Shown in pieces: positions 14,301 to 56,323 of a DNA stretch of 64,000 bases. Each line of letters starts with the position of its first letter. The stretch's first letter is position 1. A model generated the notes under the pieces. The model saw nothing but the letters and a program-made list of their open reading frames with translations. It did no database searches and was not told the origin of the DNA. The stretch is from Candidatus Parcubacteria bacterium (lineage in GTDB: Bacteria; Patescibacteriota; Patescibacteriia; Patescibacteriales; UBA12075): positions 187,669 to 251,668 of the forward strand of contig CAWHBO010000005.1 of NCBI GenBank assembly GCA_963827735.1. The letters run 5' to 3'. Position numbers and translations under genes: made by a program.

Positions 14301-14310
14301 TTTACCGTAA
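8380..14310 (+). CDS. Giant (1976 aa) surface protein: TrbC/VirB2-like N-terminal module, IPT/TIG repeats, Cys-rich tandem modules, C-terminal fibronectin type III domains
   Basis: N-terminus paralogous to the 6395 ORF (ITDPRELLVNIVKFALSFVGLIAVVFIMYGGFLWMTANGDSDRISKAKKTL). IPT-like segments (NPVISSVSPDNGAPGNFITIRGRHFG; QPVIDYISPENGPIGEYVTIFGSGF). About 35-aa Cys-rich tandem repeats (KPCDNDLDSSVCGAPGNCDP...). Fn3-like C-terminus. A single uninterrupted ORF. Confidence 0.85.
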   Translation: MRLNHKKLLFLFLFLAVFAIGSKALAGDLGFNYANNLGLTNSDITDPRELLVNIVKFALSFVGLIAVVFIMYGGFLWMTANGDSDRISKAKKTLISAAIGLAIIISAFVIVNLVMRGTGAIISGTCTDSETRSCGCGGTQTCSGGFWGSCIGSDCGLTPSSLNFQVKRTVPRDQALVARNASVAVIFNQLIGTTDQITLNDNFTFSKIATINPDTLEEAAIAEEPYADITDVVTSGDGYRLTRQSTEACGDEKATPHCFDSWTKYRVRINSGLGDIENTSGTAALDHAFEFSVNNLIDTNPPTAGIIPAQICYDDGTLAADANYIGAWGRDDVGIGAMRFYEQGNPTPTISFIGNSQKYQYEEYQVDATALTVGDSFVSRVAVDDMVPDTASGSFSTIIRQGHCCNGILDAGEEETDCGGTDCESCSMQNPVISSVSPDNGAPGNFITIRGRHFGSTTGEVYFWNGVDYTVLAAYPNSVNANCIKNWSDSQIIAVVPALASSGPIRIIRGDGRDDATDDDNGPSVPDFIVNAVTRPGLCLLAPDSGVYRDSFSLEGNAFSGSGQAVFFGNETDNLEAPHSNLTNTRASSSVPNAASGRTTVFFAANGQNSNSLYFNIARDLNNQPVIDYISPENGPIGEYVTIFGSGFSAFSAGTSNVTFTRISDGTEYEIETGADFPSACQDKWWSNRQIVVKVPNVGSGLGDYRITVRSSGNLTSEPKNFEITAGAPGPGICLLDPDNGKIGMEINVFGDNFGSSQGTGFVQFFAPSLINVSAGLTWTNQNIKVNVPVSAQTGPVKVSKGTLSNGLQFRVGACATSTDCDIISGEECCGAGTFWSGVCRTAGTCGQGTADLTGYGWSFTVSSSSSALVCGGFSDQASCDAASRCPNSPGECQTNDSLSTGKNCSNADCNSRFAQCQGQCVYDGIANLCVANAAPLTTSCDLASTTLISSYTAVCRQVNSLGIWQINEPLLCPSGTYLDINGWCTVGSIGHPALCGICGSGFLCDSNHRCVVNQSICPDNSTCTAGQCVLSNEACECCCEVGQDDRDCCLGLTCEAGGCGNDPVNYGLCSGCRVDLNGNNADLTAAEQTASDNACNCEGTNGKYCEIADPADSSDLGVCKDAKPCDSSPAPACQADSVLCDTGEFCDTDCFCKKGKPCDNDLDSSVCGAPGNCDPATEYCNPADCFCRPGKSCDNDLDPTVCGAPGNCDPVTEFCDEDCLCQPNSIPAGDPCFQNSSSTLPACNPFHCGSAYECLTDNYESEASACGYCCCNLDNAKTSLDSCLNLNPNFYCAATADTGSACFDSNVSTPPNFGICCGCSADSECGGTGEGCGTDACCHGRPDVESVYPLDMPAASAGTVCRNTAVEVRFNQLMDVESFPENIILVGDYGVSACPQGTSYLAVSGEKEKNYGLFKKLAFNILEFGKKILAPVLQEKEASAFTPVSALHNFCAVKGSVMSYAEDDKSVLVFSPSKLLDPSRLFYVIVKGDEDLSSVTGVKNQWGIGMNPLGSPSAGDNTFNKITYAHSYTWSFTTLSDQGSSKGVCKVDRVTVAPASYLFQTVKNDLNEADNKDSIADSDKIFTAKAKTADGQTVVPVSDYSWDYAWTVLDGSIAQIISVPSFTATGSRQLVRASANITDGRTVLSATASSTIVPSGMAPFSKTGDAEIYVFVCQNPWPPVVGGLWAPWRDNGSNCSGGSTGCNNTNYEIYYCRDAGVSGTFDDLPAIVSSSTLSFRQTLVCSEGGAPCAVLGAVCGTAGTCEIGVLKESFFFRAAVPDVSTITIAGSPDDEGGIALLHWNDVPPAAIPAEESLSAYKVYYGLSSGNYTESLIVSILDPHTAISPYAVSGLKNNVKYYFAITAVYASGAESGFSNEIVLTPADKDAPAAPNNFTAIATSTKVELNWDAVNGASGYVVHFGTNSGVYGSSEDIGADTQVIVAGLINGQTYYFALSAKDKNGNESLYSNEVAATPILP

Positions 14311-14393: not shown

Positions 14394-15125
14394 ATGTTTG
14401 ATAATTTAGACGACAAAACCACTCAAACCGCTCCTGTCCCGGGGAATGTTCCTGTGCCGGATGGTCCGCAAACGGCGGAAGATATTTTTTCAGAAACGAA
14501 TGATTCTGCGCCGACAAGCCCAAGCAATTTAACTGATCAGCCAAAAGTTCAAAGCGAACAATGGTCGCAAGTTGATCCGGGCATTGACAGTCTGGACATT
14601 GAAAAGCAAGGCAAGAAAAAAATGATAATGCTTATGCTCATGTTTATCGGGATGATTTTGATCGGCTGGGGAACATATTTGGCTTTTGGAAAGATTGTGT
14701 CTAGCATCGGTAGTTTTGGAAAAAGCACTGTTGAAAAAACCGAAACAGATAAAGCCGCCTCAAACTTGAATCAAACCGATGAAGCCAACACGACCAACGA
14801 TACCATTTCGACAAAAGAGCCAGACACCGTTTCCGGAACTTCAACAGAGGACTATATACCCGCTCCCGCTGAAGTTGAAAACGCCGATGCCGACAAAGAC
14901 GGGCTTTTGGATACGGAAGAAAATGTTTTAGGCACCAATCCTGGGAAAGTTGACAGCGATGATGACGGCCTTTTTGATCGCGAAGAAGTCAGGATTTATA
15001 AAACTGATCCCTTGAAGTCAGATACGGATAGCGATGGGTTTATGGATGGCGAGGAGGTAAAATCAGGCTATAATCCCAAGGGAGACGGGAAGCTGTACCG
15101 GATAAATGCTCAAACAGCGCAATAA
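14394..15125 (+). CDS. Membrane-anchored protein with acidic DxDxDG Ca-binding (TSP3/dockerin-like) repeats
   Basis: Single TM helix (IMLMLMFIGMILIGWGTYLAF). C-terminal DADKDGLLDTEE...DSDDDGLFDREE...DTDSDGFMDGEE repeats. Confidence 0.65.
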   Translation: MFDNLDDKTTQTAPVPGNVPVPDGPQTAEDIFSETNDSAPTSPSNLTDQPKVQSEQWSQVDPGIDSLDIEKQGKKKMIMLMLMFIGMILIGWGTYLAFGKIVSSIGSFGKSTVEKTETDKAASNLNQTDEANTTNDTISTKEPDTVSGTSTEDYIPAPAEVENADADKDGLLDTEENVLGTNPGKVDSDDDGLFDREEVRIYKTDPLKSDTDSDGFMDGEEVKSGYNPKGDGKLYRINAQTAQ

Positions 15126-20128: not shown

Positions 20129-21775
20129 ATGAAGCATCGGGAAAGGAAGGAGGTAGGGAGTATGGGAAATTTAACTTTTAGAAAGTTTAGAATGGTGTTT
20201 ATTGTGTTTGTGGTAATTATCCTTTTAGCAGGATGTAACGGCGGCGGTGGAGATTCCGACAACGACGGAGGAAGCAATCCTGTAAAGAGCACTTGGTATC
20301 AGGACCCAGACAGTGATTTACTTCCTTCTGGTAATCCAATGACCGCTAGTACTCAGCCGGGCACCAATTATTATGTGGAGTCGCATTTTACTTCACTTAA
20401 GACAGACAACTGCCCAGATGTCGCTAACCAGAATCAGGAAGATATGGATAAAGACGGCATCGGCGATGCCTGTGACAGCGATAAAGACGGTGACGGAATT
20501 GCGAATGGATCCGACAATTGTTCAGGAACAGCAAATCCCGATCAACTGGACACAGACAAAGATGGCATCGGCGAGGCCTGTGACAGCGATAAAGACGGTG
20601 ACGGAATTGCGAATGGATCCGACAATTGTTCAGGAACAGCAAATCCCGATCAACTGGACACAGACAAAGATGGCATCGGCGACGCCTGTGACAGCGATAA
20701 AGACGGTGACGGAATTGCGAATGGATCCGACAATTGTTCAGGAACAGCAAATCCCGATCAACTGGACACAGATAAAGATGGTATTGGCAATGTTTGCGAT
20801 TCTGACATTGACGGAGATGGAATATCTAATGACAAGGATAATTCCCCCGCAATCCATAATCCTGACCAATCGGATTTGGATAAAGACGGTATCGGGGATG
20901 TAAGTGACCCTGATAAAGACGGTGACGGAATATCCAATGACGAGGATAATTCCCCCACAATCCATAACCCTGACCAATCGGATTTGGATAAAGACGGTAT
21001 CGGGGATGTAAGTGACCCTGATAAAGACGGTGACGGAATATCCAATGACGAGGATAATTGCCCAACAACCCCTAACCAAGCACAAACCGATGTTGACGAA
21101 GACGGCACAGGCGATGAGTGTGACGATTGTTGCGATAATTGCAGTAGTTTTGAATACGTCGCTTCGCAGACGTATAAGAATTGGGGCGATTCTCCGTCTC
21201 TGGCTTTGGTGGCAGCGTCTATGTATGGATATACAACCGGTCCATATCCTGCTCCTGGCAACATCGCGGTTTTTAAAACCCAAAGTCAGTTTGGTAATCC
21301 GGCTGAACCGCCATATTATCCAGAGTTCGCTGGAACGATTGGGATCATCAACGAAGTTGACGGGAATGTCATTACTGTTCAGTTCGGCGAAGAGGATATC
21401 AAAGAGTATTACCAGGTTGGTGCCGGTTTATTGGTGGATAATATAGGTAAGTATTATTACAATTTTACTTACATATATTATGCGGGACTACCAAGCCATT
21501 GGTATGAAATCTCGCAAAGCAAATATTATTTTGCTGGTTTTGACCAGCAAGTAAAAAAAGGAGAAGTATGCCGTCTGAGGGCGCCTTATAGCGCCAACAC
21601 CACATACGCCTGGACATCACCAGGCGCAGTTACATTGTCGGACAGTTCAAGCTTTATGCCGACCTTTGATACTTCAAATTTGGATGTCGGCTGGTACGAA
21701 TTCACCGTTACGCTGACGCAGCCTTATGACGTGCCTGCGACAGCGCCTGTAAGGGTTGAGATAATCAACCCATAA
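20129..21775 (+). CDS. Lipoprotein with thrombospondin type-3 repeats and a C-terminal globular domain
   Basis: Lipobox-like LLAGCNGG. Repeated DKDGIGDACDSDKDGDGIANGSDNCSGTANPDQLDTD (TSP3 consensus DxDxDG...DNC...NPDQ.D.D). Confidence 0.75.
   Translation: MKHRERKEVGSMGNLTFRKFRMVFIVFVVIILLAGCNGGGGDSDNDGGSNPVKSTWYQDPDSDLLPSGNPMTASTQPGTNYYVESHFTSLKTDNCPDVANQNQEDMDKDGIGDACDSDKDGDGIANGSDNCSGTANPDQLDTDKDGIGEACDSDKDGDGIANGSDNCSGTANPDQLDTDKDGIGDACDSDKDGDGIANGSDNCSGTANPDQLDTDKDGIGNVCDSDIDGDGISNDKDNSPAIHNPDQSDLDKDGIGDVSDPDKDGDGISNDEDNSPTIHNPDQSDLDKDGIGDVSDPDKDGDGISNDEDNCPTTPNQAQTDVDEDGTGDECDDCCDNCSSFEYVASQTYKNWGDSPSLALVAASMYGYTTGPYPAPGNIAVFKTQSQFGNPAEPPYYPEFAGTIGIINEVDGNVITVQFGEEDIKEYYQVGAGLLVDNIGKYYYNFTYIYYAGLPSHWYEISQSKYYFAGFDQQVKKGEVCRLRAPYSANTTYAWTSPGAVTLSDSSSFMPTFDTSNLDVGWYEFTVTLTQPYDVPATAPVRVEIINP
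20457..21057. repeat. Near-perfect 120-bp tandem repeats inside the TSP3 lipoprotein gene (3 copies of type 1, 2 copies of type 2)
   Basis: Identical 120-nt blocks starting near 20460, 20580 and 20700, and a second block type at about 20818 and 20938. Confidence 0.85.
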
Positions 21776-31222: not shown

Positions 31223-32779
31223 ATGAGAATAAAGATAAATAGCACAACGGATGTAGACAGGCGAGTAAAAGAGGTAAATAAAGAAAGTTGGCTGATATAT
31301 TTTTTGTTTAGTTTTTTTCTAAGACCCCTTAAGGCGGAATGGGTGAAAGCTACGAATGATTTAAAGAAAAAACTTGAAGACAAAGAGAAGTGGATGAGCG
31401 TTTGCGAAATCGAGCATCTTGATGAGGAAACTATTCATTCAATGAAAATTTCCATTGAAAAAGATCGCAAGATTTTAACGGTTTTGAAAGACAAAATACG
31501 AAGCCTTGAAACCCCACTGGACGAAAAGAAAATCGCTGAAGAACAAAAAATAAGCTTAGAAGCAAAGATGGACGCAGAAGCATGCGCACTCAAGGTAAAA
31601 ACCGATAAATTTGATAAAGAACATGTAAGCGGAATAGACATTGCAGAATACGTGTCCTTGTTTTATAAAAAAGAAGCTCAAATGAAAGCCGTAGGCAAGA
31701 TGTGCGTGGCATGGACAGTACTTTTTGTAAGTATCTTTATGATTTCACTGATTGTTGGTTTGGCTTATTATTTTTTCTCTCCATTTGAATTTTGTAAAAA
31801 GACCATCTCACTCATTCTTGTTCTGATTATTTTTGCGCCTATTGTACGTCGGGTTGTCCTGAAATCATATCGAACCGTTCCGGAAAAAGAGGAATGGCTT
31901 ATGCAGTGGTTTGGTAAATATCTGACCACTTGGGAGCCGGGACTCCGTTTTCGTTTTCCGTTTTTTATGAATCGTGGAGCCAGAGTAACCCTTAAAACTT
32001 TTTCGATTCCGCTTTTTAGAGGTGATGAAAAAAATACGAAAGATAAAGCTGGCGCGGAAGGAAGAAAAGATGCTGATGTAGAGTTCTCCGATACTTCCGC
32101 GGGAGTTGATGCGGATTTGTTTATTAGGATTGTTGATTCATTTTTATCAGTTTACGCGGTTGATCATATGGTTTCTTCTGTCCGTAAAAACATGGAAACC
32201 GGCATCAGAGCTTACTACGGTGGTGAAGATCTGGACAGCGCGATCGAAGGAAAAGTTGATGTCAGCCTCAGGAGCATTATAACCGAGAATGCGACAGACG
32301 CCTCAAATTTTAAAGATTGGGGAGTCAGGGTTGTCAGTTTGGCGATTGGAGATTTTATTCTTTCTCCGGAGTTGGATGCTCAACGGCAATTGATGTATAG
32401 CGCAGAGAATAAATTAAAAAGAGCAGCAGTTGAAATACAAACAGAAGAGAAGGAAGTAATAAAGAAAAAGCTACAAGGCCAAGGTGACGGTGAAAAATTG
32501 AAGCAATTTGCAGAATCTTTTGGAGTGCCAGTAAAGGATGCCCTTGCATATATTCTTCAAACAAAGAAATATGATGCTTATGAGAAAGCTGGCATATTGA
32601 TTGCTGGTAACTCCATGGGCACAAGTATGGATTCTGCGCTTTCAGGTGCTGTTGCCGGAGCCGCCGCACAGGCTGGTCTAAACGTTAAGTCTGCAAAAGA
32701 TAAAAATACCGAAACGCCAATTGAAGAGAAAGTTGTTGAGAAAAAGGACGATAATCAAAAGAAAAAAAAGCAAAAATAG
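31223..32779 (+). CDS. SPFH/band-7 domain membrane protein with an N-terminal coiled-coil and a Lys-rich tail
   Basis: TM helices followed by WEPGLRFRFPFFMNRGARVTLKTFSIPL, typical of SPFH (HflK/C-like) domains. Confidence 0.55.
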   Translation: MRIKINSTTDVDRRVKEVNKESWLIYFLFSFFLRPLKAEWVKATNDLKKKLEDKEKWMSVCEIEHLDEETIHSMKISIEKDRKILTVLKDKIRSLETPLDEKKIAEEQKISLEAKMDAEACALKVKTDKFDKEHVSGIDIAEYVSLFYKKEAQMKAVGKMCVAWTVLFVSIFMISLIVGLAYYFFSPFEFCKKTISLILVLIIFAPIVRRVVLKSYRTVPEKEEWLMQWFGKYLTTWEPGLRFRFPFFMNRGARVTLKTFSIPLFRGDEKNTKDKAGAEGRKDADVEFSDTSAGVDADLFIRIVDSFLSVYAVDHMVSSVRKNMETGIRAYYGGEDLDSAIEGKVDVSLRSIITENATDASNFKDWGVRVVSLAIGDFILSPELDAQRQLMYSAENKLKRAAVEIQTEEKEVIKKKLQGQGDGEKLKQFAESFGVPVKDALAYILQTKKYDAYEKAGILIAGNSMGTSMDSALSGAVAGAAAQAGLNVKSAKDKNTETPIEEKVVEKKDDNQKKKKQK

Positions 32780-32788
32780 GAGGATCAA

Positions 32789-33469
32789 ATGATTGATCAA
32801 ACAAAATATGATATTTTTCCAGAAGATGAAACAGACAATTCGTCCGGAACGAAAGTTCTTAACGATAAAGACGTGGTGGAAAATAAAAAAACAAATTTTA
32901 CAATAAAAATTCCACCATGGCTAACAGAAATTTTAGCTGGCCTAGGCATTGTCGCCTTTGTGATTGTTTGGTTCAAAATCGGTCCGGGCTTATTGGCTGA
33001 CATATTTTTTCCAACCGCAAGAGGTGCCCTTTGGTTAAACATTATGTCGGACATCGGCGGGGCGATTGTTGGAACGGTTGGTTATTATGTTTTTCTTTCT
33101 TCAATCAAGCCAAAGAACGGAACAATCATTTTTACTTTAAGTATGATTTTTCTGTTGTTGATGCATATCACCATGGTATCCATTTCGCACGTCCAAATAG
33201 CTTCTCACGCAAGAGTGGCTGAAAGCGACGTTATAGTTCTTAAGAAAGGCCTCCATAAAATTGTTGTCAGAAAGGGTGAACTGACAGATGGCTATTACGA
33301 CACAGATGGCGATATCGTAAGAATGGAATCGCCCAATAAAAATTTTATACTTATAAAGGCCGATAACAACCCCTTGTCCCCCTGGGAAATAAAAAAGTGG
33401 CAGAAAGAAGATTTTCTTTTTAAAATTCAATCTTTCGCCGACCAGGAGATTATTATCCAAGTTAAATAG
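32789..33469 (+). CDS. Hypothetical membrane protein
   Basis: Several TM segments. Followed by a 14-bp perfect-stem terminator at 33491-33533. Confidence 0.5.
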   Translation: MIDQTKYDIFPEDETDNSSGTKVLNDKDVVENKKTNFTIKIPPWLTEILAGLGIVAFVIVWFKIGPGLLADIFFPTARGALWLNIMSDIGGAIVGTVGYYVFLSSIKPKNGTIIFTLSMIFLLLMHITMVSISHVQIASHARVAESDVIVLKKGLHKIVVRKGELTDGYYDTDGDIVRMESPNKNFILIKADNNPLSPWEIKKWQKEDFLFKIQSFADQEIIIQVK

Positions 33470-33711
33470 GCAATAATGCCTAAAATATCCATAACCTCAT
33501 AAGCAAAATATCGCTTATGAGGTTATTTTTTTAATCAAAAATTATTTGCAAAAACTGCTTGACAAATACCGCTTGACAAATATGGTAAAAAGTGATATAC
33601 TCGTTTCAAGAATAAATATGCTCATTTTATCGTATAAATATATTTACAAGTGGAAGGTAGGTATATTTATCAATATTAAAAACAAATTTACTACTCAAAA
33701 AGGAGGTAGGT

Positions 33712-34040
33712 ATGGAAAAGAAATTCAGTCTTATAACGGCAGTAATAGCAATCATAATGGGGGCAATCTTTTTTTCATCGCCTGTCCTTGCCGGAGGCGA
33801 CGGTTATTCAGTCAAACAGGCTGAAGATCTGTGGCAATATGGTGTTGCTGATAAACAAAAGGCAATCACAGTGTTGGAAAAAGTGATAGACCAAAAACCT
33901 TCAAACAACAAGGCGCGTTATCTGTTGGGGCAATATAATTTTGAACTTGGCAAATTTGATGAGGCTTACAAAGCTTTTTCTCCCAATCCGGTTAAAGTGG
34001 ATTATGGCAAAGAGATCGCTGACCTCTACTTTAAAAATGC
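33712..34040 (+). CDS. Small secreted TPR-like protein, 3'-truncated at the compositional junction (the ORF runs artificially into high-GC DNA)
   Basis: Signal peptide [29 protein letters not shown] and TPR-like helices. No stop codon before the GC shift at about 34040. Confidence 0.55.
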
Positions 34041-34043
34041 CGA

Positions 34044-35025
34044 GTCAAGGAGGATCAGGACTACCTCCAGCGCCACCCCGACGGCCCCACCTGCCATTTC
34101 CCTCGGCCGGGCTGGAAGCTGCCGCGCCGCTACCAGGAGGAGGGCCGCGACAGCACGCGGTGGCTCGGCTTCCCGTTCCGCGACGGCGACATCGTGATCA
34201 GCACCCCGTCCAAGACCGGGACCACGTGGGCGCAGATGATCTGCGCGCTGCTGATATTCGGCGAGCCGCAGCTCCCGGCCCCGCTCGGGCGCCTGTCGCC
34301 GTGGCTGGATCACCTGGTCGCGCCACGAGATGAGGTACATGCCCTGCTGGCCGCCCAGCAGCACCGGCGGTTCATCAAGACCCACACCCCACTGGACGGC
34401 CTGCCGCTCGACCCCCGCGCCACCTACCTGGTGACCGCCCGGCACCCGCTGGACGTGGCCGTGTCGACCTACCACCACTGCGCCAACATCGACGAGGCAC
34501 GGTGGCGGCAGCTGATGGGCGAGCCCGAGCCGCCGAGGCCACCGCCGCCGCCAGAGCCGCTGCGCGACTGGCTGCTCCGCTGGATCGCCGACGACACCAA
34601 CCCGGCTCGAGGACCTCGACACGCTGCCCGGCCTCATGTACCACCTCACCGACGCCTGGGCCCGGCGCCGCGAGCCGAACATCCTGCTCGTGCACTACGA
34701 CAACCTGTGCGCCGACCTTGACGGCCAGATGCGCTGGCTGGCAGGCCAGCTCGGCATCACCATCCCCGAGCACGCCTGGCCCGCGCTCGTCCGGGCGGCC
34801 ACATTCGAGAACATGTCCCGCAACGCGGACCAGCTGGTCCCTGCCCCCGGCCTGTTCAAGAGCAACGCCGCGTTCTTCCGCCGGGGCACCTCCGGCGAGG
34901 GACGCGAGATCCTCAGCGGCGCCGAGATCGCCGACTACCACGCCCGCGTGGCGGGGATGGCGCCCCCCGACATGCTTGCCTGGCTCCACTCGCCCCGCCC
35001 CGGAGCCGTGACGGCAATGCCGTAA
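34044..35025 (+). pseudogene. PAPS-dependent sulfotransferase, 5'-truncated at the junction and split by a frameshift near 34600-34615
   Basis: 5'-PSB motif TPSKTGTTW and 3'-PB motif RHPLDVAVS in frame 0. The C-terminal part ([25 protein letters not shown]...FFRRGTSGEGREI) is in another frame. No start codon on the high-GC side. Confidence 0.65.
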
Positions 35026-35383
35026 TCACGACTGGCCCCGCGGGCCACCGATAGGGCGCGGCAGTACCGGCTCATCCCGCCGCAGGCCCGAGAGTGGCAC
35101 CAGGCGAGCAGCCGGGCGGCCCGCCTCGCCGGAGGGTGAGTGTTCAGGACGTCCAGCGGCGCTGTGAGCCCTCGCAATCAGCCAGCCGCCACATCATCGC
35201 CAACTGTGGCCTGACGGCAATAGACAACGTCGAACGCAGAGTCGGGCGCGTCCGATTCTGGGAGCGGATTGGGAGCGGAGGTCCGCCGTCAGCCGCGGTC
35301 AGATGCGGTCAGACTCAGCATGCCCATGCCTGCGACCTGCGGATACGTCGCTCAACCGCCGCATCGACAGCTCACGCGCCCAG

Positions 35384-35428
35384 TTCGGGACGAAGAGGCC
35401 GCCGGTTCAAATCCGGCCACCCCGACCC
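35384..35428 (+). other. tRNA 3'-half-like element (anticodon loop to acceptor; T-arm GCCGG-TTCAAAT-CCGGC), copy 1 of a direct repeat
   Basis: gttcgggacgaagaggccgccggttcaaatccggccaccccgacc. No matching 5' acceptor or D-arm upstream. Followed by a hairpin. Confidence 0.5.
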
Positions 35429-35517
35429 AGGTCACAGGCCCGTTTCCCCTCACGAGGAGCGGGCCTTCCCCTTGCCGAGCGCCACTGGTGCGCCAAGACG
35501 CCGCGTCCACGACTCGA

Positions 35518-35724
35518 TCACCTTGCCGTGAGCGTCGGGCGCCAGATGGGCGTACTCGTCACCGCCTGGGTGGCTGGGATGACCGCTCGCGCAGCACCAC
35601 GTACCACGCTCACCCCCGCGACCCCGGGCGCGGCGCCCGCCACAATCGCTGGCCCAGAGCCCAGAAAGGGACCAGCCATCGCCGTCAGGGCGAGGCCCAC
35701 CAAAGCGGCGGCTTTCATCGTCAT
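35518..35724 (-). CDS. Small secreted protein (68 aa, signal-peptide-like N-terminus)
   Basis: MTMKAAALVGLALTAMAGPFLGSGP... with good GC3. Local AT-richer patch upstream (RBS-like ggaaagg). Confidence 0.3.
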   Translation of the reverse strand: MTMKAAALVGLALTAMAGPFLGSGPAIVAGAAPGVAGVSVVRGAARAVIPATQAVTSTPIWRPTLTAR

Positions 35725-36197
35725 TTTTTCCGTACCTTTCCGCATTGATCCCCGGCTAGCTTGCGATACACCCTTCTTGTGCGGGCCCTGATTTAGCGCA
35801 TTGCGCTGGGGCCGTCGGCTCGCCCGGGCCGGCCACGGCGGTGCGACGGAATGGAAACTACTCTTAGCCGATACGTCCAAAAGGATTGCCAGGCCGCATG
35901 GGCGAGTGGCTGCCCGCGGCCGCTGAGACGAATCCCCCGCGGAGGTAGCGATGGCCGGACGAGGGCGCGGCAGGCGGAAGAACCGGCGAAGCCGGGGCGC
36001 GGCGGCAATCGCGGCCGCGGCGATCACGGCCACCGTGGCCGCCGCCGCGGCCTGGCCGATCAGCGACTCGCTCGCCGCCTCGCCGAAGCCCGGCTGGTTC
36101 ACTGGCCGGGGAGTCCGGCCGCGCCGGGCGGGCGGAGTCGCCCTCAGGCATCCGGGCCGGCTGGGACCCCGTACCCTACCGGCGCGCCCGGCTGTCC

Positions 36198-37082
36198 GTG
36201 CCTGGCCGGTGGCTGGTCGAGACCCCGCGCGAGATCTTCTGCCAGCCCCGCTCTGCCGGCATGATCTTCACCGGCGTCAAGCCAGGGATTCCGAAAGGGA
36301 CGGGCTGTGGCCTGACCGCCAGCTACGCCTGGATCGTGCCGGCCGGTCACATCCCGCCAGGAATCAGCCATCGCAAACCGACCGCGGTGATCAACGGCAT
36401 CCGGGTCTACCGGCGGCCAACTGGCCCGAACTCGGTGCTCTACCTCGTGCCGGAACTCAGCGTGCGAGTCGGCGCGCACGGACCGCTCGGCAGGAGGGTA
36501 TTGGCAACGCTGAACAGGTCACCGCTCTCCGTCGTGCTCGGCAAAGGCCGGGCCAGCCCGGTGCCCGCCCGCTGGGTCTGGCATCAGTTCGGCGGCGTCA
36601 GGTTCGCTGCTCCGCGCACCTGGCACCGGCACCGCCAGACGCAGTGGGCAACCTGCGGCACCGGCGTCGTGCCGGGCTCGCTGGTGCTGATCGATGCGAT
36701 CAAGCCGCCGCTCGCCCTGCCCTGCCCGTTCCCACTCCCCTACGCTGACACGTTCGCGGCCCAGCCTGGCCTGACGGCCGTCACCGGGAAGTTCGCGGCC
36801 AGGTCGGTCGGCGAGCGCTTCACCCGCTGCCAGCAGCGCCATCGCGCCCGGATCTGCCTGGCCGCGGTCACCGGCCATGGCGGCTTCCTCAGCGGCGTGC
36901 TGATCTTCTCGGTCTCTCAGGCCGCACCACCACCCAGCGGCTTTCTTCCTGCTGGGGCTGTCAGGATCAGGTGCACGCGCCCGGGCGATCTTCGACTCAA
37001 TGACACTCAGATAGCCCAGCTCCACCCGAAGCCCTCAGGGCAGCAGGCACGCACTAAGGCCCGTTCACGACTACCTGTCTAA
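36198..37082 (+). CDS. Hypothetical protein (W/Y-rich, strong GC3 bias). A Sec/TAT-like signal peptide is encoded upstream in a different frame (35951-36100), suggesting a frameshifted N-terminus
   Basis: High third-position GC across 36110-37082. Upstream frame encodes RRKNRRSRGAAAIAAAAITATVAAAAAW. Confidence 0.45.
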   Translation: MPGRWLVETPREIFCQPRSAGMIFTGVKPGIPKGTGCGLTASYAWIVPAGHIPPGISHRKPTAVINGIRVYRRPTGPNSVLYLVPELSVRVGAHGPLGRRVLATLNRSPLSVVLGKGRASPVPARWVWHQFGGVRFAAPRTWHRHRQTQWATCGTGVVPGSLVLIDAIKPPLALPCPFPLPYADTFAAQPGLTAVTGKFAARSVGERFTRCQQRHRARICLAAVTGHGGFLSGVLIFSVSQAAPPPSGFLPAGAVRIRCTRPGDLRLNDTQIAQLHPKPSGQQARTKARSRLPV

Positions 37083-37375: not shown

Positions 37376-39259
37376 TCACGGTCGGGCCGGCCCGGACCGG
37401 GTGTCGGACATCGGTGTGTTGACCGTGATCTCGCCGGTGTAGGCGCGGAAGTGCAGTGCCGACTCGTGACCATGTCCGTGGTGCAGGGTGAGGTGCGCGA
37501 TCGGGCCGTCGGTGGCCAGGTCGTTGCGGTTGCGGGCATGCCAGTTGCGGTCCGCGAGCGGGAAGTTGGAGCCTGCGATCTCGATCCGGATCCGGTGGCC
37601 TGCCGGGAAGTAGTTCGCGGTGGTGATGCCGCCGATCCGGACCCGGTGGATCTCGCCGGGCACGAGCTTGGCTGGCTGCTCGAAGCCGTCGCGGTAGCGG
37701 AGCCGCAAGCAGCTGTCCGCGAGGTTGTAGGCGGTCCCGTCCGGATAGACGTCCACGAGCTTGACGAAGACATCCGCGTCCTCGACGTCGGCTGACACGT
37801 GCAGTTCCGCGCTGAGGTCGCCGACGATCGCTGTCGGCTCGGTCAGCACGGGCGTGCTGTACACGAGCACATCGGCCCGGCACTCAACCACCCGCTGATC
37901 CACGCAGATCGGGTCATGGGTGGCGAGGTCGCCGCCGAGCGACTGCACGGGGTTGTGCGGGTCGGCGATGAACTCGTCGGTCCCGGCGCCGCGGGCAGCA
38001 GGCACAAGGGCACCGTCGCCCCACAGCGTGTTCGCGGACTTGTCGCTGGCCAGGAAGAGCGTCCGCGTCTCAGTCTCGGGCAGCGGCCAGGACTCGCCGG
38101 TCAGCCAGGTGCACGCGCCCATGAGGAAGACCTGCACCTTCGGCATCGGCTGCCAGGCGTCTGCCTCATCGCCGAGGAACCGGTCGAACCACGAGATGAT
38201 GATCTCGTCGTAGGGGAAGCGGGTGTCGCCCATGGGCCGCTGGCCCAGGCGGGCCTCCGGGCCGGTCACCAGCATCCGGCAGTGCTCCGTCGGCGCCATG
38301 ATCAGGTACTGGTCGGGATGATGCTGCTGGAACTCGAATAGCTTGACCGTCTCGTGGGCGCCGACATCCATCCACCCGTTGAAGTTGATGGACGGCGTCG
38401 CGCCGGTGTGGCTGGCGTTGATCAGGTCAACCACTTTCCAGGCCGGGCTGGCCAGCCCGCCGGCCATGAACGTCTCGTAGCCCGTCAGCGGCGAGCCCAT
38501 CCGCCGCAATATGCCGCCGCTCGGCGCTTGCAGCGTCGCCTTGTCGAGGGCTGCGGTGTACTCCGGGCTGCGGAAGTCCGGCACGGTCACCGAGTACTGC
38601 CGGAAGATCCGGGCCAGCTCGTCGCCCGCGGCGCCGGCGGGCAGCTTCGGCCGCTGCCAGACCCCGAACGGGCCATACCACAGTGCCCATGCCTTGATCA
38701 TGGGAACGCCGCCGCGGAAGAAGCAGCCGTTCGATCCCTCCGCACCCGGGATGTCGCCGACGCCCGCGCCTGAGCTCATCGGCACGCAAGCGCGCAGCGC
38801 CGGATGGCCGATGGCGCCGAGCTTCAGCTGGTTCTCGGCGGTCGAGGAGCAGCCGTGCAGGCCCACCTTGCCGTTGGACCATTCCTGCGCGCTGATCCAG
38901 TCGAGGGTGTCCTGTGCGTCCGCGGTGGTGGTGGTCAGGATGCCGAAGTCGCCTTCTGACCATTCGCTTCCGCGCTCGTTCTGCATGATCAGCGCGTAGT
39001 TCTTCTTGAACTGCGCGGTGTGCATGGGCTTGAACTGATCGGGGATGGCGGCCGCGTACGGTGACCGGACCAGGAGGGTGGGATATCGGCCTTCAGCGCG
39101 CGGCCGGAAGACCACAGTCGCCAGCCGGATTCCGTCGCGCATCGGCAGCATGATGTAGTCGACCCGGTAGCGGATGGTGTCCGCTCCGAGGGCGCGGACA
39201 GCCGATTCGAGCGCTGTGGGCGGCCGGAACTCCTCGGGCCTGTCGTCGGCTGCTGTCAT
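37376..39259 (-). CDS. CocE/NonD-family hydrolase (X-Pro dipeptidyl-peptidase S15-like) with an atypical nucleophile motif
   Basis: Intact 627-aa ORF from MTAADDRPEEF. C-terminal X-Pro dipeptidyl-peptidase-like beta-sandwich region. The catalytic region reads GLHGCSSTAEN rather than the canonical GxSYxG. Confidence 0.6.
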   Translation of the reverse strand: MTAADDRPEEFRPPTALESAVRALGADTIRYRVDYIMLPMRDGIRLATVVFRPRAEGRYPTLLVRSPYAAAIPDQFKPMHTAQFKKNYALIMQNERGSEWSEGDFGILTTTTADAQDTLDWISAQEWSNGKVGLHGCSSTAENQLKLGAIGHPALRACVPMSSGAGVGDIPGAEGSNGCFFRGGVPMIKAWALWYGPFGVWQRPKLPAGAAGDELARIFRQYSVTVPDFRSPEYTAALDKATLQAPSGGILRRMGSPLTGYETFMAGGLASPAWKVVDLINASHTGATPSINFNGWMDVGAHETVKLFEFQQHHPDQYLIMAPTEHCRMLVTGPEARLGQRPMGDTRFPYDEIIISWFDRFLGDEADAWQPMPKVQVFLMGACTWLTGESWPLPETETRTLFLASDKSANTLWGDGALVPAARGAGTDEFIADPHNPVQSLGGDLATHDPICVDQRVVECRADVLVYSTPVLTEPTAIVGDLSAELHVSADVEDADVFVKLVDVYPDGTAYNLADSCLRLRYRDGFEQPAKLVPGEIHRVRIGGITTANYFPAGHRIRIEIAGSNFPLADRNWHARNRNDLATDGPIAHLTLHHGHGHESALHFRAYTGEITVNTPMSDTRSGPARP

Positions 39260-39827
39260 GCGCGGTCGACCTCCCGCGGTATTTGTTATCCGATCAATGC
39301 GCCGGGTTTGCGGTCCATTATCGATGTTGAGGCAACAGCGGCCGCAGAGCCGTCCGCCTCGACGGCTTCCGCCGCTCCGGCCCGGGAACCATCGCGCCAC
39401 GACGCCCAGCACAGAACCGGGAACTCTGGACCTTAACCAGCGGCCGTGCCAGCCCAACTGGACAAGCTCGTAATCGTTCTGCTGCGTTTCCTGGTGCCTG
39501 CGCTTTGGTGACCAGGCCGTACAGGTGGTGACCTGGCGTGACGACCAGTGCGATCTTACGGTCGAGTGGTCAGTTCTATTGCTTGGGCCGCGGTCGGCCC
39601 GGCAGCCTTCGGGGTCTCAGCCCAGCTCTGGAGAGGTCGCGTGATCGTGATGGGGGTGACCCTCCGGATCCTGCGAGACTGAGGCTGACCTGCCGATAGG
39701 ACTGCTCGGCCTGACGCGGCTGCGGGTTCGCGCCCTGCGCCGCGGACTGACCGGGGGCTGCCGATGGAATCTTCCGCGACGATGTCCGCTTCACACGGTA
39801 TCCGCGCTCGAACGCGAGTCGGCGGAA

Positions 39828-41056
39828 GTGCGGGCGCGCCGCCTGGCTGCCGCGCGCCGGCGGGCTACCGCTCTCCTGGCCGGGGTGACGGTTGTGTTCG
39901 TGGCCGTGACTGTGGCCGGTGTCCACGGGACGCTGCTTGGGTACGTGCAGGCCGGCGCCGAGGCGGCCATGGTCGGAGGCGTGGCGGACTGGTTCGCGGT
40001 GACGGCTCTGTTCCGCCGTCCTCTTGGCCTGCCGATACCGCACACTGCGCTGATCGTCGAGCGCAAGGATCAGTTCGCCGCCACTCTTGGCCAGTTCGTG
40101 CAGGAGAACTTCCTCAACGGCGATGTTCTTGCCGAGCGGATCCGCTCCGCCCGGCTCGTTGCCCGCCTGGCTGCCTGGCTCGCCGACGAGGCCAACGCCG
40201 CCGGCTTCGCCGGTCACGCCGCGGATCTGGTGGTCACGGTGGCCGAGGCTCTTGCGTGATGAGGATGTCCAGCGCGTGGTCACCGCCGAGCTGACCCGGG
40301 CGGCAGACGCCGTCGAGGTGGCGCCGCTGGCTGGGCGGGCCGTGCGGGTCCTCATGGCGGGAGGCCACCACGCCGAGTTGTTTAACGCCATCGTGTCCGG
40401 CGCCGATCGCTATCTCGCCGATCATCACACCGAGCTTCGCGAGCTGTTTGAGGCCGAGTCACCCCGCTGGGTGCCCGACGCGGTGTACCAGCGGGTCTTC
40501 GACCGCCTGTACAGCCGCCTGCGCGACAGGCTGGCGGCGATGGCGGCCGATCCGGACGACGAAGCCCGGCACCAGTTCGAGGAATGGCTCGCCGGGCTTC
40601 CCGACCGCCTCGAGACATCCCCCGAGCTGCGCGAGCGCGGGGAGCTGCATCAAGCGCGATGTCCTGGGCAGCGCCGCGCTGCGGGACTGGTCCTCGTCGC
40701 TGTGGAAGAGGCCAAGGACACGCTCCGGACCCAGGCGGCCGACCCAGGGTCTGAGCTGCGCCGCCGGCTGGCCGGTGCGCTGGCGGCGGCAGGCGGGCGC
40801 CTTGGATCAGACCGCCGCCTCCAAGACAGCGTCGAGCGTGTCGTCGAATCAGGAGCCAGGGCACTCGCCGATCAGTTCCACGACGAGCTTCGCTGGCCTG
40901 GTCACGGGAACCATCCAGCGGTGGGACGCCGCACAGACGTCGAGCCAGCTGGAGCTGCTACTAGGACGCGACCTGCAGTTCATCCGCATCAATGGCACAG
41001 TGGTGGGAGCTGGCGTGGGCCTGGCCTTGCACGCCATCGTCCTGGCCCTGGCCTAA
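39828..41056 (+). pseudogene. DUF445-family membrane protein, interrupted by two frame changes (about 40250 and about 40895)
   Basis: N-terminus GGVADWFAVTALFRRPLGLPIPHTALIVERKDQF and C-terminus GRDLQFIRINGTVVGAGVGLALHAIV are both DUF445 signatures, but they lie in three different frames. Confidence 0.6.
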
Positions 41057-42436: not shown

Positions 42437-42710
42437 CTATCCGTCGGAGTCCGTGGCCGGGAAGATGCGATCCATGGCATCGGCACCGTGCAAGAGAACG
42501 GGCCGAATCTGCTTGCGGTAAACGGTCTCGGTTGTGGCAGTGCCGCTGTGCCCGACCAGACGGGCAATGTGCTCGACCGGAACGTCGGCATCCGACATCA
42601 GCGAGACGAAGCTGTGCCGAAGTTCCCTCGGAGTCCACTCCCCGGCTCCAAGGGCGCGCCTGGCGGCGCGCCAGCACTCCGGCTCGTGCTCGCTGAAGCG
42701 CCGAAGGACG
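42437..42710 (-). pseudogene. Tyrosine recombinase (phage-type integrase) C-terminal fragment
   Basis: ...WTPRELRHSFVSLMSDADVPVEHIARLVGHSGTATTETVYRKQIRP (box II: HxLRH...LGH...Y). No integrase-like sequence in any frame further upstream. Confidence 0.7.
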
Positions 42711-43362
42711 GTCATCGATACGTGGAGGCCGAAGACGGCATGTGCCTGCCTGCCGGTTCGGGCTGAGAGCGACGGGGATACCCGAGCCGCGCGGGCGGCG
42801 GGCTGTGCCCGCGCCTCTGCGCTTTGAGGGCGCCCGGCGCGGACTGGCCCGCCTCGCGTGCTCATCCCCGCGCCTGCCCGCACGGGGCAGCTCGCCGCAA
42901 CGGAGCGGGCACATGACCGGCCAGCATTTAGCGAACAGCCGAGGGTTGACGAACAGGTGGCGGCTTCGCCGCAGAAGGCCAGCGGGGCGCTGCCCCGGAC
43001 CCCGGCCCTCCCTCAGAGATGGGATCTGGTCTACCAGGTCATCCCCTCGCCCGGCCAGGCAGAGCGCTACGCCCGAACCCCCGGACAGTGCTAGGGCTCG
43101 CTTTGCTCGGCCTCCGGCAGACCCTTGCACTCCCCGGAGAACCGGGCGCAGCCCCGCAGGGTGCCCGACCGAGGAGATGACCTTCAGCCCGCCAGGTGGT
43201 GTCTGCGTGCCAGCCTTGAGTGTGATCATCCACGGCTAGATCCCGGCGCCTATCAGAAGAACGAGCGATGAGTGGATGATGCTCGTCCGGTCGCCGAACC
43301 GCCAGCTTGCGATGTGTCGTGCATCTACTTATGATGGTCATGTGAGTAAGGTGCAGGGCCCG

Positions 43363-46951: not shown

Positions 46952-47400
46952 CCACCGCTCTCGGGACAAGATCAACATGCTCCTCGTTCACGCTGTTGAG
47001 TTGTCAAGTTTCGAGCAGACCTTGCTGACACCGGCAACCGGCGCCTAACACGCAGCTCTTGCCGTCTGCCGATCTTGCTAACGGTTTGCTGACAACGGCT
47101 GTGGAAACGTGGGGTTGGTCTTGGACCCCAAAAGGGAGCCAACGCGTCATGCGGCCCGGGTCAGGCGGCCTGTGATGGACCACCTCGGAGTCTGCAAAGC
47201 CTCCTAAAAATCGGAAGCAATGCCGCGTGGCCTAGCTGGCCGGGCCGGAAGCCGTACAGCACACAAGTACAGCAACGCCATCGGCCGGGAACGACTCCGA
47301 CAAGCTGCCGTGAGACAGCGACCTGCCCCAACGACCACGAATGACCTCACTGCCAGGAGTTCGCATCGAGGTGCTCACTGTGACTCGTAGTTTTATCAAG

Positions 47401-49236: not shown

Positions 49237-49347
49237 TCTGCGTGCAAAACGAGGAATTCACTGTTTAGTTGTCAAGGCTCAAGCAGGCTGAGCTGCCGCT
49301 GAAGCCTGGCGATGCCGCCGCTGCAGACTCCGGCGGTCTTGCTAACA
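49237..49347. repeat. About 111-bp direct repeat, copy 1 (about 97% identical to 50557-50669)
   Basis: tctgcgtgcaaaacgaggaattcactgtttagttgtcaaggctcaagcaggctgagctgccgctgaagcctgg...gccgccgctgcagactccggcggtcttgctaaca. Confidence 0.85.
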
Positions 49348-50556: not shown

Positions 50557-50669
50557 TCTGCGTGCAAAACGAGGAATTCACTGTTTAGTTGTCAAGGCTC
50601 AAGCAGGCTGAGCTGCCGCTGAAGCCTGGTCGCATGCCGCCGCTGCAGACTCCGGCGGTCTTGCTAACA
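50557..50669. repeat. About 111-bp direct repeat, copy 2
   Basis: Same sequence as 49237-49347, with a 2-nt indel after cctgg. Confidence 0.85.
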
Positions 50670-50774
50670 GACTGCTAACTACGGTTATGGATCCCTGCCG
50701 TCAGGCCTGGTCAGTCAGATTGCGCAGCGCGACATATTTGGCCGGTCAGATGGCCGAAGGTGGACCGACTTTGA

Positions 50775-50826
50775 CCCGCAAAGCCTCCTGAAAAGCGGAA
50801 GGTCGGCGGTTCGATCCCGCCCCTGA
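50775..50826 (+). other. tRNA 3'-fragment-like element (T-arm GGCGG-TTCGATC-CCGCC, GAA-anticodon-loop-like ctgaaaa). Related copies at 55665-55720 and, partially, 47185-47215
   Basis: cctcctgaaaagcggaaggtcggcggttcgatcccgcccctgacca. The upstream sequence cannot form D and acceptor arms. Confidence 0.45.
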
Positions 50827-51209
50827 CCACGCGCTGACCTGGGCAAACGCGCTTCTGGAGATCGTTCGCCGGCGGCGTGTCGCATTTCTAGTCTCAGTGA
50901 GCAGCCCTGAATCGCATGCCGCCGCGCGAATAACAGCAGGTCCGAAGGCTTGCAAGGTCGGCAAAGCTGCCCCTCGTCCGCTCCGAAAGCGGACGGCTCG
51001 GCGTGCACCCGCGTACATAGGCGTCTGCATGGGCACGTCGTGGTTGAAGTGCACTTGCTGCCACCGGCGGCTCTCCGGGTCGCAGCCGGGCGGAGCGGCC
51101 ACCCCCCGCACCCGGTCACGTCGTGCTGCAAGGTGGCCAGGACCAGGCTGGTCGCGGTCAGCGCCACCCCGGTCTGGACGGCCGACGATTCCCGACGGCG
51201 ATCGTCAGG

Positions 51210-53624: not shown

Positions 53625-56323
53625 TGGCTGATCCTACTGAGGCAGTCGCTTTGTGATTGCTTGAAGTGCTCAGACCGCAACGAAGGAAACCGAAATAGCG
53701 GCACGGACGGTGGCCGCCGAGGATTCCGCAATTCTAGGTGCAGGCTAACGTCGAGCACCCCGGTCGATCTGCAGCTATCCCGAAGGCCGGCGTTTAGGCG
53801 CTGCGTGCTTGCTGCTCGCCGTGCGGCGCGCAGGTCGCGATTTCGCGATATCTTCGCAGTCGGCCAGATCGGCTCTCGCATCGGGTCATTGTCGGAGAGG
53901 ATCCGGGAGAGCAGCCGCGGTGTCAGCGACGCCCGGATGAGGTCGCCAGCCTGCGTTGCCATAGGCGCGAGGTAGGGCTCGATGACGTCGAATTGACGGG
54001 ACAGTCGCGTCGACTCCTGCCCCGCGCGCCTGTGCCGCTCGCCGAGCAGAATTACCACGCAAGCTGCGGTCAGCGACATCATCCATGCAACCAGGTATGC
54101 AGAGAAAACCGGCCAGACCGAGGGCTGATGCTCAGCGCCCTGGTGGTTCAGCGAGCCTATCTGGACGAGCCCAGCTATCACGATGCCGAATGCCGAGACT
54201 ACGAGCACGGTAGCTACAGAGAAGTAGACGGTTGCGGCCCGCCGGTCGCGCTGAGCATCGCGGGCATATTCCGTTGCGACGTCGGCGAGTTTCGAGGCTT
54301 GCGCGGCTCATTGATTTGGGCCAGCGCTCGAGCAGGAGGAGGTCTGCGACTGCCGCGCGCTGAGGCTGGCAAGCAGTTGATCAGCGAGTACGTCCAGAGT
54401 CCGGAATTCGGGAACCGCAACGGGTGGCCGACCGGGCTCGGAAAGTACTGCAAGGTAATCAGCGCAGTTTGCGAGTTGCTCGTCGAGCGCTGAGAGCCGC
54501 TTGCTCCACGGCACGTCGAGTCTTGGCCCGAGCCTGGTGGACAGGTCGCTGACGACGTCACAGACGACGCTCAGCTTTTCCACAAGCTCGGATTGCCCTG
54601 CGGTGCTGATGATAAAAGAAGCGGTGAGTGAGCCCTGCAGCCGAGACGCAGAGGAGGCGAGGCTGCTGGCCCGGCCGGATGCCTGCATCGCACGTGACCT
54701 CACGCCCAAAGGTTACGTGCTGGCTATTCGCGAAGAAGGCTGACATGCCGGACGGGACCGCCTCCGGCTAGCCTGGGCTGACGTCAAACCCGTGATCTTG
54801 ACTCGTTGACGTCAATCCTGCGGGCCGACCGGTTCTCCAGCACTGAGCTCTGGCCGCGGCGCCCCCCATTACTCGATGTAAGCGCGCTCGGCAAGGGCAA
54901 GCGCATCGGTAGGGGCGGTCGTTGCCCGCGGCGTCAGAATCGGCACGCGCCGCGCGCGCTGCGGCCGCGCCCGGCGGCACCTCACAGATCGACCAGTTAA
55001 GTGCCGCCCAGGTGGCCACACCGTCGCCTTGGCGCTGAGTACCGAACGAGCCGTATTTGCGCGTCGAGCTGGGAGCCGCCGATCACGGCGCGGATGTCGG
55101 CGGGCTGCGGTTGGCCGTTCCGCCTGGCGCGCCGGCTGCGATCGGCGGACTTGCCGAGCCTCTGATGGCGGCGGCCGGCGGCTGGGGGCTGGCGGGCGGG
55201 CTGCTGGCATCCCGGGGGCGTCACGCGCCCGCTTCGGGCTCCGCGCGCGGTCGCCGCTCCGTCTGGCGAGCATGCCGCGGCTGGCGGAGGATGCGCGAGT
55301 CGTAGCTCGATCTCGACCTCGCGGCCTGCCTGGCGCTGGTCGGCTGCGAACCAGCGCGCCACCTGGTAATCGAACCACCCGAGCACCGCGCCGCTGCCGG
55401 CGTCGCGGACATACCAGCGGTAGCCTGGCTCTGGTTGTCTGCGGATCATGTACGTGTTCACGGCACCGGACCCTGGCTCCGCTTAGGGAGCCTGCCCGGG
55501 CGGCGCTCCAGCGTCCCCGGCTGGCGCGGTCCAGGTCCCCGGGACCGAGGGCGTAGTCTCATTTCTAGTCTCGTTTACCTGCGTACACGGGCGTCGATCA
55601 CGCAGTCCACGGCCAGCCGCTGAGCACGGCGAACGACCCAGCTCACCGGCCGTAGACGGTCATCCTTGCTCCTGAAAAGCGGAAGGCCGGCGGTTCGATC
55701 CGCCCCGCACCCACCTGTGACCTGCCATAACGCGCTGGATGATCTTTATGCACCACCAGAGGCTAGGGACGGGGAGTGAGCAGGCAGGACGACCTGGTTG
55801 GCCGCGTCTAGATGGCGATTCTCAATCCCAGAGGCGGAAGGTCGGAGACGCGATCCGAGCCCCGACCACCAGCTCAGAGGGCAATTGATCTTCGAGAAGA
55901 TCAAGTCTGATCCCAAAATGGTCCCACCGGTGCAGCGGGAGATGTCATATGCCTGAGCTGGCAGGCACCCGTCGCGGTCACGTCGGCCTCGATGATCCGG
56001 ACGCTGAGTCCGTCCACGCAGGACATGGCGGAACCGTCGGCAGGTGGGCGGCGACCTGCGGGTTGCGGCAACACGGGGCCGAGGCCAGCACCTTCGCCCC
56101 GGCACGGCTGATCTTGGCGAAGAACCCGGTGGCGAGCGAAGGCCCGGTCCAGCAGGACCAACATGCCCGGCTGCAGCTCCTGCGCTGTTGGGTCGCGTGG
56201 CCGCTCTTCCGGGACAGCTGGAGCGCAACGTCTTCGGTCGGCGTGTCCGAGCCGCGGCCGGCAGCCTGCAGGACGGCCTGCCGGTACCGTGCGAGCAGGC
56301 CTATCGCAGTCACGGAGGTCGAG

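Follow-up and report, generated by a model that had tools for sequence, protein, structure and literature searches.

How does a single bacterial contig come to pass abruptly from low-GC DNA of the Patescibacteria (CPR) to high-GC DNA of the Actinomycetota? Such a boundary lies in the window, by which we mean the whole 64-kb stretch of DNA that was analysed, itself part of a 256.5-kb metagenome contig. The join stands in the public record, the genes on both sides of it are truncated, the two sides belong to two phyla, and they differ in consensus quality. The answer developed here is that the join is very probably a technical artefact of some kind and that, among the types of artefact, an assembler mis-join is the one we favour, with a lesser degree of confidence. 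The initial annotation of this DNA had likewise preferred a chimeric or concatenated contig to a biological insertion, a reading that is now supported by the phyla involved, the truncated genes, independent assemblies and the consensus quality of the two halves.

The window divides into two parts that meet within a short interval.

34,038-34,055, no strand: breakpoint interval, defined by a Markov change-point, by the edge of homology to the high-GC contigs L001 and L006, and by repeat and adapter scans that were negative.
1-34,038, no strand: intact, gene-dense fragment of a Patescibacteria (CPR) chromosome, assigned from Pfam matches, glycyl-tRNA synthetase (GlyRS) identity, gene density and tetranucleotide correlation.
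34,056-64,000, no strand: fragment of an Actinomycetota genome with lower consensus quality and few recognisable genes, assigned from GC content, tetranucleotides, and plasmid and PepX-type matches.

The GC content rises from about 0.40 to about 0.70 across 34,038-34,055, in keeping with the abrupt jump originally described (from about 35% to about 70% within about 10 bp). At a resolution of 50 nt it is 0.42 at 34,000-34,049, 0.66 at 34,050-34,099 and 0.74-0.80 further to the right, and in 1-kb tiles it ranges from 0.25 to 0.53 left of 34,000 and from 0.55 to 0.76 from there to the end of the window. With order-3 Markov models, each trained on one side, the change-point falls at 34,038; its support is 48 bits, and the 3-bit interval extends from 34,035 to 34,063. 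The comparison of tetranucleotide profiles that the initial annotation had proposed was run on 4-kb tiles and gives a correlation of r = -0.14 between the left and right halves, against values of 0.81-0.96 (left) and 0.89-0.98 (right) for tiles compared with the mean of their own half. The junction is thus real in the sequence, far beyond chance. Only nine 14-mers are common to both halves, so that a shared repeat cannot explain a repeat-mediated join.

From 34,055-34,056 onwards the window is certainly homologous, without gaps, to the high-GC relatives L001 and L006; from about 34,042 the homology is plausible at the codon level. Close to the join, L006 reads GAG-GCC-AAG and the window GAG-TC-AAG, a codon-level similarity which suggests that the actinobacterial DNA starts at about 34,042, in agreement with the change-point in composition. 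A restriction-ligation junction of the kind found in Hi-C or clone libraries was considered at the GATC in GGATCAGG. The codons before the GATC (GAG GAT, probably GAG-TC-AAG) look homologous to those of the relatives, and on this reading the break would lie upstream of the site. The N-terminus of the TPR-like protein encoded just left of the join retrieved only distant TPR proteins from the JGI metagenomes (36-46% identity, in unrelated contexts), and the breakpoint was therefore not narrowed below 34,038-34,055. An exact 36-mer taken just left of the join had no match in either the genome or the metagenome contig collections, so that neither the source contig nor any contig of the same strain is among them.

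The low-GC half has the appearance of an ordinary, well-resolved chromosome fragment. Its 27 ORFs, nearly all on the + strand, cover 87% of the sequence and none is interrupted, which bears out the earlier observation of intact ORFs of up to 1976 aa on this side. Pfam matches identify a GT4 glycosyltransferase, TrmB, an ABC transporter and RelA/SpoT; two large surface proteins of 603 and 1976 aa, each with a T4SS_pilin domain at its head; TSP3-repeat proteins, YbeY, DAGK and FtsA; a class II aminoacyl-tRNA synthetase (the GlyRS), a DUF4147/MOFRL protein and a metallo-beta-lactamase-fold protein; and a response regulator, NDK, an acyltransferase and a Band_7 protein. These are followed by a 226-aa protein and, at the right end, by the TPR gene. 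The Band_7 protein had no relative in the genome contig collection. The best named relatives of the GlyRS, at 77-81% identity, belong to Ca. Falkowbacteria, the Patescibacteria group, Paceibacterota and Moraniibacteriota; the label "CPR-like" first given to this side is correct on this evidence, and by the same measure the lineage is Paceibacteria/Falkowbacteria-like, not Saccharibacteria. The distinction matters for the suggestion that an ultrasmall episymbiont living attached to its host had been assembled together with it. There are Saccharibacteria known to live on Actinobacteria, and in a Falkowbacteria-like lineage the episymbiont-on-host rationale finds no specific support.

Four features describe what happens to the genes at the join itself.

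33,712-34,041, + strand: 5' end of a gene for a secreted TPR-like protein, with about 110 of its 347 codons left before the join cuts it.
33,712-34,197, + strand: chimeric ORF of 161 aa that spans the join, read from the translation and identical to the protein P0001.
34,042-34,130 (from 34,042/34,050), + strand: 3' remnant of an actinobacterial msrA, about 27 codons, from its match to the protein P0004 and the msrA that lies upstream in L001 and L006.
34,128-35,025, + strand: sulfotransferase gene, with PF00685 matched in two frames and a 1-nt insertion at about 34,608.

The TPR-like gene that starts at 33,712 encodes a signal-peptide-like N-terminus followed by TPR-family Pfam matches that lie slightly below threshold. 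It had been described as a gene without a stop codon, and its own 3' part is indeed lost, but the reading frame continues across the join and stops at 34,197. The last 50 residues of the resulting chimeric ORF are msrA/sulfotransferase DNA read out of frame, and the proteins matched by its C-terminal part are MsrA proteins (PF01625). In the remnant, read in frame 2 from 34,041, 12 of 12 residues are identical to the PF01625 protein P0004. Furthermore, in the JGI contigs L001 and L006 an msrA lies upstream of the matching sequence, at the place where the window carries CPR DNA, and L006 has an undisturbed msrA reading across the region that matches the window. Judged by these matches, the gene cut on the high-GC side is msrA, interrupted about 27 codons before the end of its MsrA part.

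The sulfotransferase, which had been taken to start mid-domain and thus to be the truncated gene, was misjudged in this respect. Its match to PF00685 (Sulfotransfer_1) begins at profile position 1 and runs to 117 in one frame and from 142 to 232 in the next, with the PAPS-binding loop PSKTGTTW included; the frame changes where the window has one nucleotide more, at about 34,608, than L001, in which the ORF is intact at 276 aa. Over 34,055-35,245 the window is 95.6% identical in nucleotides to positions 7,384-8,573 of L001, an 18.7-kb contig in which msrA is followed by the 276-aa sulfotransferase. The same contig carries a SARP/BTAD regulator, an ECF sigma factor and a tricorn protease, a gene context that is typically actinobacterial.

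The fusion of these two truncated genes is not private to the window. The exact 161-aa ORF is held in NCBI/ENA as P0001, in a single-member cluster and on one contig of 256,523 bp, and the CPR GlyRS (P0275) is likewise on a contig of 256,523 bp. When the chimeric ORF and a fragment of a DUF445 gene further to the right (P0125) were looked up separately as exact sequences, both came back as "not on record". With P0001 on record, the join was not created in cutting out the 64-kb window. That the window had been stitched together from two separate database records, as the abrupt break with no linker might have indicated, is in light of these entries a practically negligible prospect, unless the protein entry itself stems from that stitching.

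Independent assemblies offer a view of the CPR locus in its uninterrupted state. Exact-protein look-ups with the 226-aa and 518-aa proteins encoded upstream of the TPR gene led to two independent Logan assemblies, with contigs of 6,186 bp (ERR15459707) and 4,759 bp (ERR12035931). They also counted the CPR proteins in a block of 0.2-1 Mb, presumably the source contig itself. The gene order in ERR15459707 is acyltransferase, Band_7, 226-aa protein and TPR, with start-to-start distances of 834, 1,566 and 923 nt that equal those of the window. Its TPR gene encodes 347 aa, with the same TPR families at the same offset, and a further gene follows. The comparison with ERR15459707 is one of gene tables, and it is from gene lengths and spacing that we infer the uninterrupted allele; on this basis, its CPR DNA would continue for at least 1.1 kb beyond the position of the breakpoint, and another assembly, obtained independently for the same CPR population, would run through that position without any high-GC DNA. 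Exact-protein look-ups in independent assemblies can in this way substitute for read mapping.

An uninterrupted allele elsewhere is by itself compatible with a strain-specific insertion. If the insertion were real, 30 kb or more of actinobacterial DNA, acquired recently, would sit in the TPR gene of one Patescibacteria strain and be decaying to pseudogenes there. The join is, after all, present in the deposited contig, the frameshifted genes of the high-GC side would fit the decay of useless foreign DNA, and some CPR bacteria take up foreign DNA. The Falkowbacteria-like CPR lineage, however, has no known actinobacterial host, and the same population in another dataset has an uninterrupted locus according to its gene table. 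A target-site duplication or an att site, which the initial annotation had named as signs of real integration, was sought by repeat scan and not found at the join: the scan of 32,500-35,600 yielded neither a target-site duplication nor an inverted repeat there, only short chance matches, none of them at 34,03x-34,05x, this being the only boundary inside the window. No sequencing adapter occurs within 250 nt of the join, and no recombinase or transposase lies at the boundary, where the msrA remnant and the sulfotransferase are the first genes to follow.

The integrase-like sequence closest to the join, 8.4 kb away at 42,440-43,012, is a fragment that matches Phage_integrase below threshold, and att-like sequences occur further still to the right, around a tRNA gene.

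50,744-50,830, + strand: tRNA-Gly(CCC), found with ARAGORN.

Partial copies of this tRNA gene, detected in a direct-repeat scan, lie at 47,194-47,217 and 55,669-55,706. All three lie inside the actinobacterial fragment (47.2, 50.8 and 55.7 kb). The incoming DNA begins inside a chromosomal gene, msrA, and not at the end of an element, and it has kept both its 95.6% identity to the msrA and sulfotransferase locus of L001 and a GC content of 68-70%. With this evidence on both sides, a real insertion is in our view very unlikely, and nothing specific speaks for it. Its specific form, a genuine join by illegitimate recombination into the TPR gene of a Falkowbacteria-like strain, captured very recently and already decaying, is extremely unlikely; if true, it would show directly that a CPR cell had captured DNA in bulk from a high-GC organism, be it a neighbour or its host.

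We return to the technical artefact, for which the consensus quality of the two halves is informative. Two protein-coding genes of the high-GC half are needed here in addition to the sulfotransferase.

37,376-39,457, - strand: CocE/NonD hydrolase (Peptidase_S15 and PepX_C in Pfam), intact, 693 aa.
39,786-41,053, + strand: DUF445 gene with four frameshifts (frames +3, +1, +2, +1, +2), from a partial Pfam match and the homolog P0126.

The left half has no frameshift in its 27 genes and contains 378 homopolymers of at least 5 nt; the right half has five proven frameshifts in two of its three testable genes (2.2 kb) and only 37 such homopolymers. The homopolymer load thus runs opposite to the frameshift count, and sequence context cannot explain the difference in quality. 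The DUF445 gene is collinear with its 429-aa homolog P0126 over 39,786-41,050 and accumulates its four frameshifts within 1.3 kb, while keeping 65-83% identity and no in-frame stops. This alternating pattern looks like consensus error, which weighs against the decay that a real insertion would imply. Furthermore, related actinobacterial assemblies that carry no CPR DNA are comparably disrupted: L001 has an internal deletion in msrA, L006 and P0004 have frameshifts, and L002 has split gene calls for ABC_tran and an AlkZ-like protein. The quality difference is most simply read as the mark of two populations that were covered and polished unequally, something that a single molecule would not show.

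The frameshifts could in principle be real pseudogenes and not errors. It may also be noted that the PepX-type gene is error-free over 2.1 kb, and the argument from low quality is not uniform over the high-GC half. The description of this side as riddled with frameshifts accordingly holds in part: five are real (one in the sulfotransferase and four in DUF445), and the 693-aa PepX-type hydrolase is intact. The suffix "np1212" in the name of the L002 contig was considered as a sign of nanopore polishing and set aside, the term being absent from the Microflora Danica paper.

The remainder of the high-GC half is sparse in recognisable content. The PepX-type hydrolase is 93% identical in amino acids to the JGI cluster P0005 (716 members); its named relatives are Streptosporangiaceae MAG proteins at 70-74% identity, and in nucleotides it is 87-89% identical to L002-L005, in which the flanks of the gene are not syntenic with the window. 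Against plasmids, megablast gave no match to the high-GC half, and blastn in distant mode gave only four short matches, all to Actinomycetota. The hydrolase and plasmid matches uphold the first description of this side as actinobacterial-like. Compared with L001-L005, the high-GC half aligns in two places only, at the sulfotransferase island and at the PepX-type gene. Pfam searches of about 40 long ORFs on this side produced very few matches, with none for the ORFs at 35,055-37,079, and a codon-usage scan trained on related contigs found a coding-like fraction of 0.17, compared with 0.41-0.52 in the relatives. A tblastx comparison without low-complexity filtering gave only high-GC noise and was discarded.

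This patchiness bears on the kind of artefact involved. The match to L001 breaks off at 35,245/35,246, within a gene of L001. Given this edge and the non-syntenic flanks of the PepX-type gene, the high-GC half could have been pieced together from short fragments, as a mosaic. The same break would be explained equally well by the natural boundary of an island, given a tmRNA/tRNA-like T-arm fragment at 35,400-35,417, beside the end of the homology, and an integrase that L001 carries 1.2 kb past it. The choice affects the possibility of a post-assembly concatenation, an artefact in which contigs of a contaminated bin were strung together, or scaffolded with a gap of length zero and without any N between them. 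Two contig ends, and not a path chosen by the assembler, would then meet at the join. Such a history would fit the clean cut seen there in both genes, where neither an overlap nor a repeat occurs, and the stop of the L001 homology at 35,245/35,246 and the isolation of the PepX-type gene as an island of homology could be taken as further seams. The low-GC 34 kb, however, form a single uninterrupted collinear piece, the frame changes in DUF445 are collinear frameshifts and not joins, and the break at 35,245 is the one that a natural island boundary fits just as well. We therefore regard concatenation after assembly as an improbable, if still appreciable, variant of the artefact.

Taken together, the reading that we favour is an assembler mis-join, and its course may be outlined as follows. 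Fragments of a Patescibacteria chromosome and of an Actinomycetota genome, both present in the same sample, would have been joined end-to-end within the 256.5-kb contig, for instance because a read was itself chimeric or because the assembler of a long-read metagenome followed its graph along a wrong path. A well-covered and well-polished CPR population would thereby have been linked to a poorly covered and poorly polished actinobacterial one. Of the CPR TPR gene, some 110 codons would have been left before the join, and of the actinobacterial msrA the last 27 or so after it, giving a 161-aa fusion ORF without meaning. The stage at which the error arose is our inference.

The significance of the join is one of data hygiene and not of biology. 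A public contig of 256.5 kb mixes two phyla, and its products have already entered the protein databases, among them the nonsense fusion P0001 (161 aa) and several frameshifted fragments such as P0125. Users of this contig could be misled about the gene content of CPR bacteria, about transfer between CPR and Actinobacteria, and about host linkage. The practical use of the present analysis is as a flag for splitting the public contig at 34,038-34,055.

Several known classes of mixed sequence invite comparison with this locus. Contaminated or chimeric metagenome-assembled genomes of the type detected by lineage-homogeneity tests such as GUNC (Orakov et al. 2021, cited in PMC12313526) resemble it in having genes of two phyla on one contig; GUNC is a test at the level of the genome, whereas 64 kb of a 256.5-kb contig are seen here. 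A horizontally acquired island would likewise appear as a long block of foreign composition beside native DNA, and the internal tRNA-Gly att-like repeats and the integrase fragment recall one. In this case, however, the element-like features lie 8-21 kb from the join, and the genes that flank the join are both truncated chromosomal genes. The closest parallel is found in long-read assemblies, for which contigs chimeric between phyla, as well as indels unsupported by reads, have been documented with metaFlye, metaMDBG and hifiasm-meta (bioRxiv 10.1101/2025.04.22.649783), a sudden shift in GC content together with a shift in gene-level taxonomy being the signs by which they are recognised. Whereas those chimeras were defined by read clipping and coverage steps and the present one is judged from its sequence, the two share the shift in GC content and taxonomy at one breakpoint on the nucleotide scale, the broken ORFs on one side, and a join at which no repeat is shared.

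On the high-GC, actinobacterial side of the window, the C-terminal motif of MsrA runs into a sulfotransferase domain (PSKTGTTW) in one stop-free frame. The same arrangement is seen at 34,042-35,025 of the window and in two related metagenome contigs, at 7,384-8,353 of L001 and 684-1,100 of L006. The actinobacterial lineage from which the high-GC side derives may naturally carry MsrA and the sulfotransferase as a fusion protein. In all relatives found msrA is broken, by a deletion in L001 and by frameshifts in L006 and in the related MsrA protein P0004.

The L001 lesion is an internal deletion of ~60 codons (L001 7,380-7,386 versus window 34,042-34,056), and its downstream end (..ATCTTC|AGGACTAC) falls 6-14 nt from the breakpoint between the two halves of the window. 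This proximity may be a coincidence, with a chance of ~5%. Alternatively, it may hint that members of the population differ in structure at this site and that assembly graphs break there.

Farther into the high-GC half, the ~96% homology to L001 ends sharply at 35,245/35,246, within a 124-aa minus-strand gene of L001. A tmRNA/tRNA-like T-arm fragment lies ~150 nt past this point, at 35,400-35,417, and matches the Rfam tmRNA model at E = 0.004, well under the gathering threshold. Either an island ends naturally where the homology is lost, or a second join lies there. Downstream, the intact CocE/NonD hydrolase (37,376-39,457) belongs to a JGI metagenome cluster, built at 90% identity, that has 716 members; its size places the actinobacterial partner in a very widespread uncultured lineage. 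The neighborhood of the hydrolase gene is dissimilar in all four relatives examined (L002-L005).

Over most of the high-GC half (41,200-64,000), codon periodicity is weak, with a coding-like fraction of 0.17 versus 0.41-0.52 in relatives, and a Pfam search of the long ORFs in this interval returned no matches. The weakness of the coding signal exceeds the effect expected from a few frameshifts; both very low consensus quality and mostly non-coding or decayed DNA are possible explanations. Within this interval, GC content dips to 0.55-0.65 across 44-54 kb, around a tRNA gene accompanied by copies of its own 3' part and by a recombinase fragment:

42,440-43,012, tyrosine-recombinase fragment, frameshifted
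47,194-47,217, partial copy of the tRNA-Gly(CCC) 3' part, 3.6 kb upstream of the tRNA gene
50,744-50,830, tRNA-Gly(CCC)
55,669-55,706, copy of the tRNA-Gly(CCC) 3' part (92%), 4.9 kb downstream of the tRNA gene

Together, the tRNA-Gly repeats, the lowered GC content and the recombinase fragment look like integrative elements stacked at tRNA-Gly in the actinobacterial fragment. Immediately upstream of the tRNA gene, 73 + 36 nt are repeated exactly in direct orientation, in copies (49,237-49,347 and 50,557-50,669) that are ~1,320 nt apart. This repeat could be genuine, or it could be one of the false duplications that long-read assemblers make.

The surface-protein genes of the CPR half are all unbroken, and the two that encode the large T4SS_pilin-domain (PF18895) proteins adjoin each other:

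6,395-8,206, large surface protein of 603 aa, T4SS_pilin at its start followed by Big_5
8,380-14,310, large surface protein of 1976 aa, T4SS_pilin at its start followed by TIG and fn3
14,394-15,125, thrombospondin-type-3-repeat protein
20,129-21,775, thrombospondin-type-3-repeat protein

These proteins constitute a typical CPR cell-surface arsenal.
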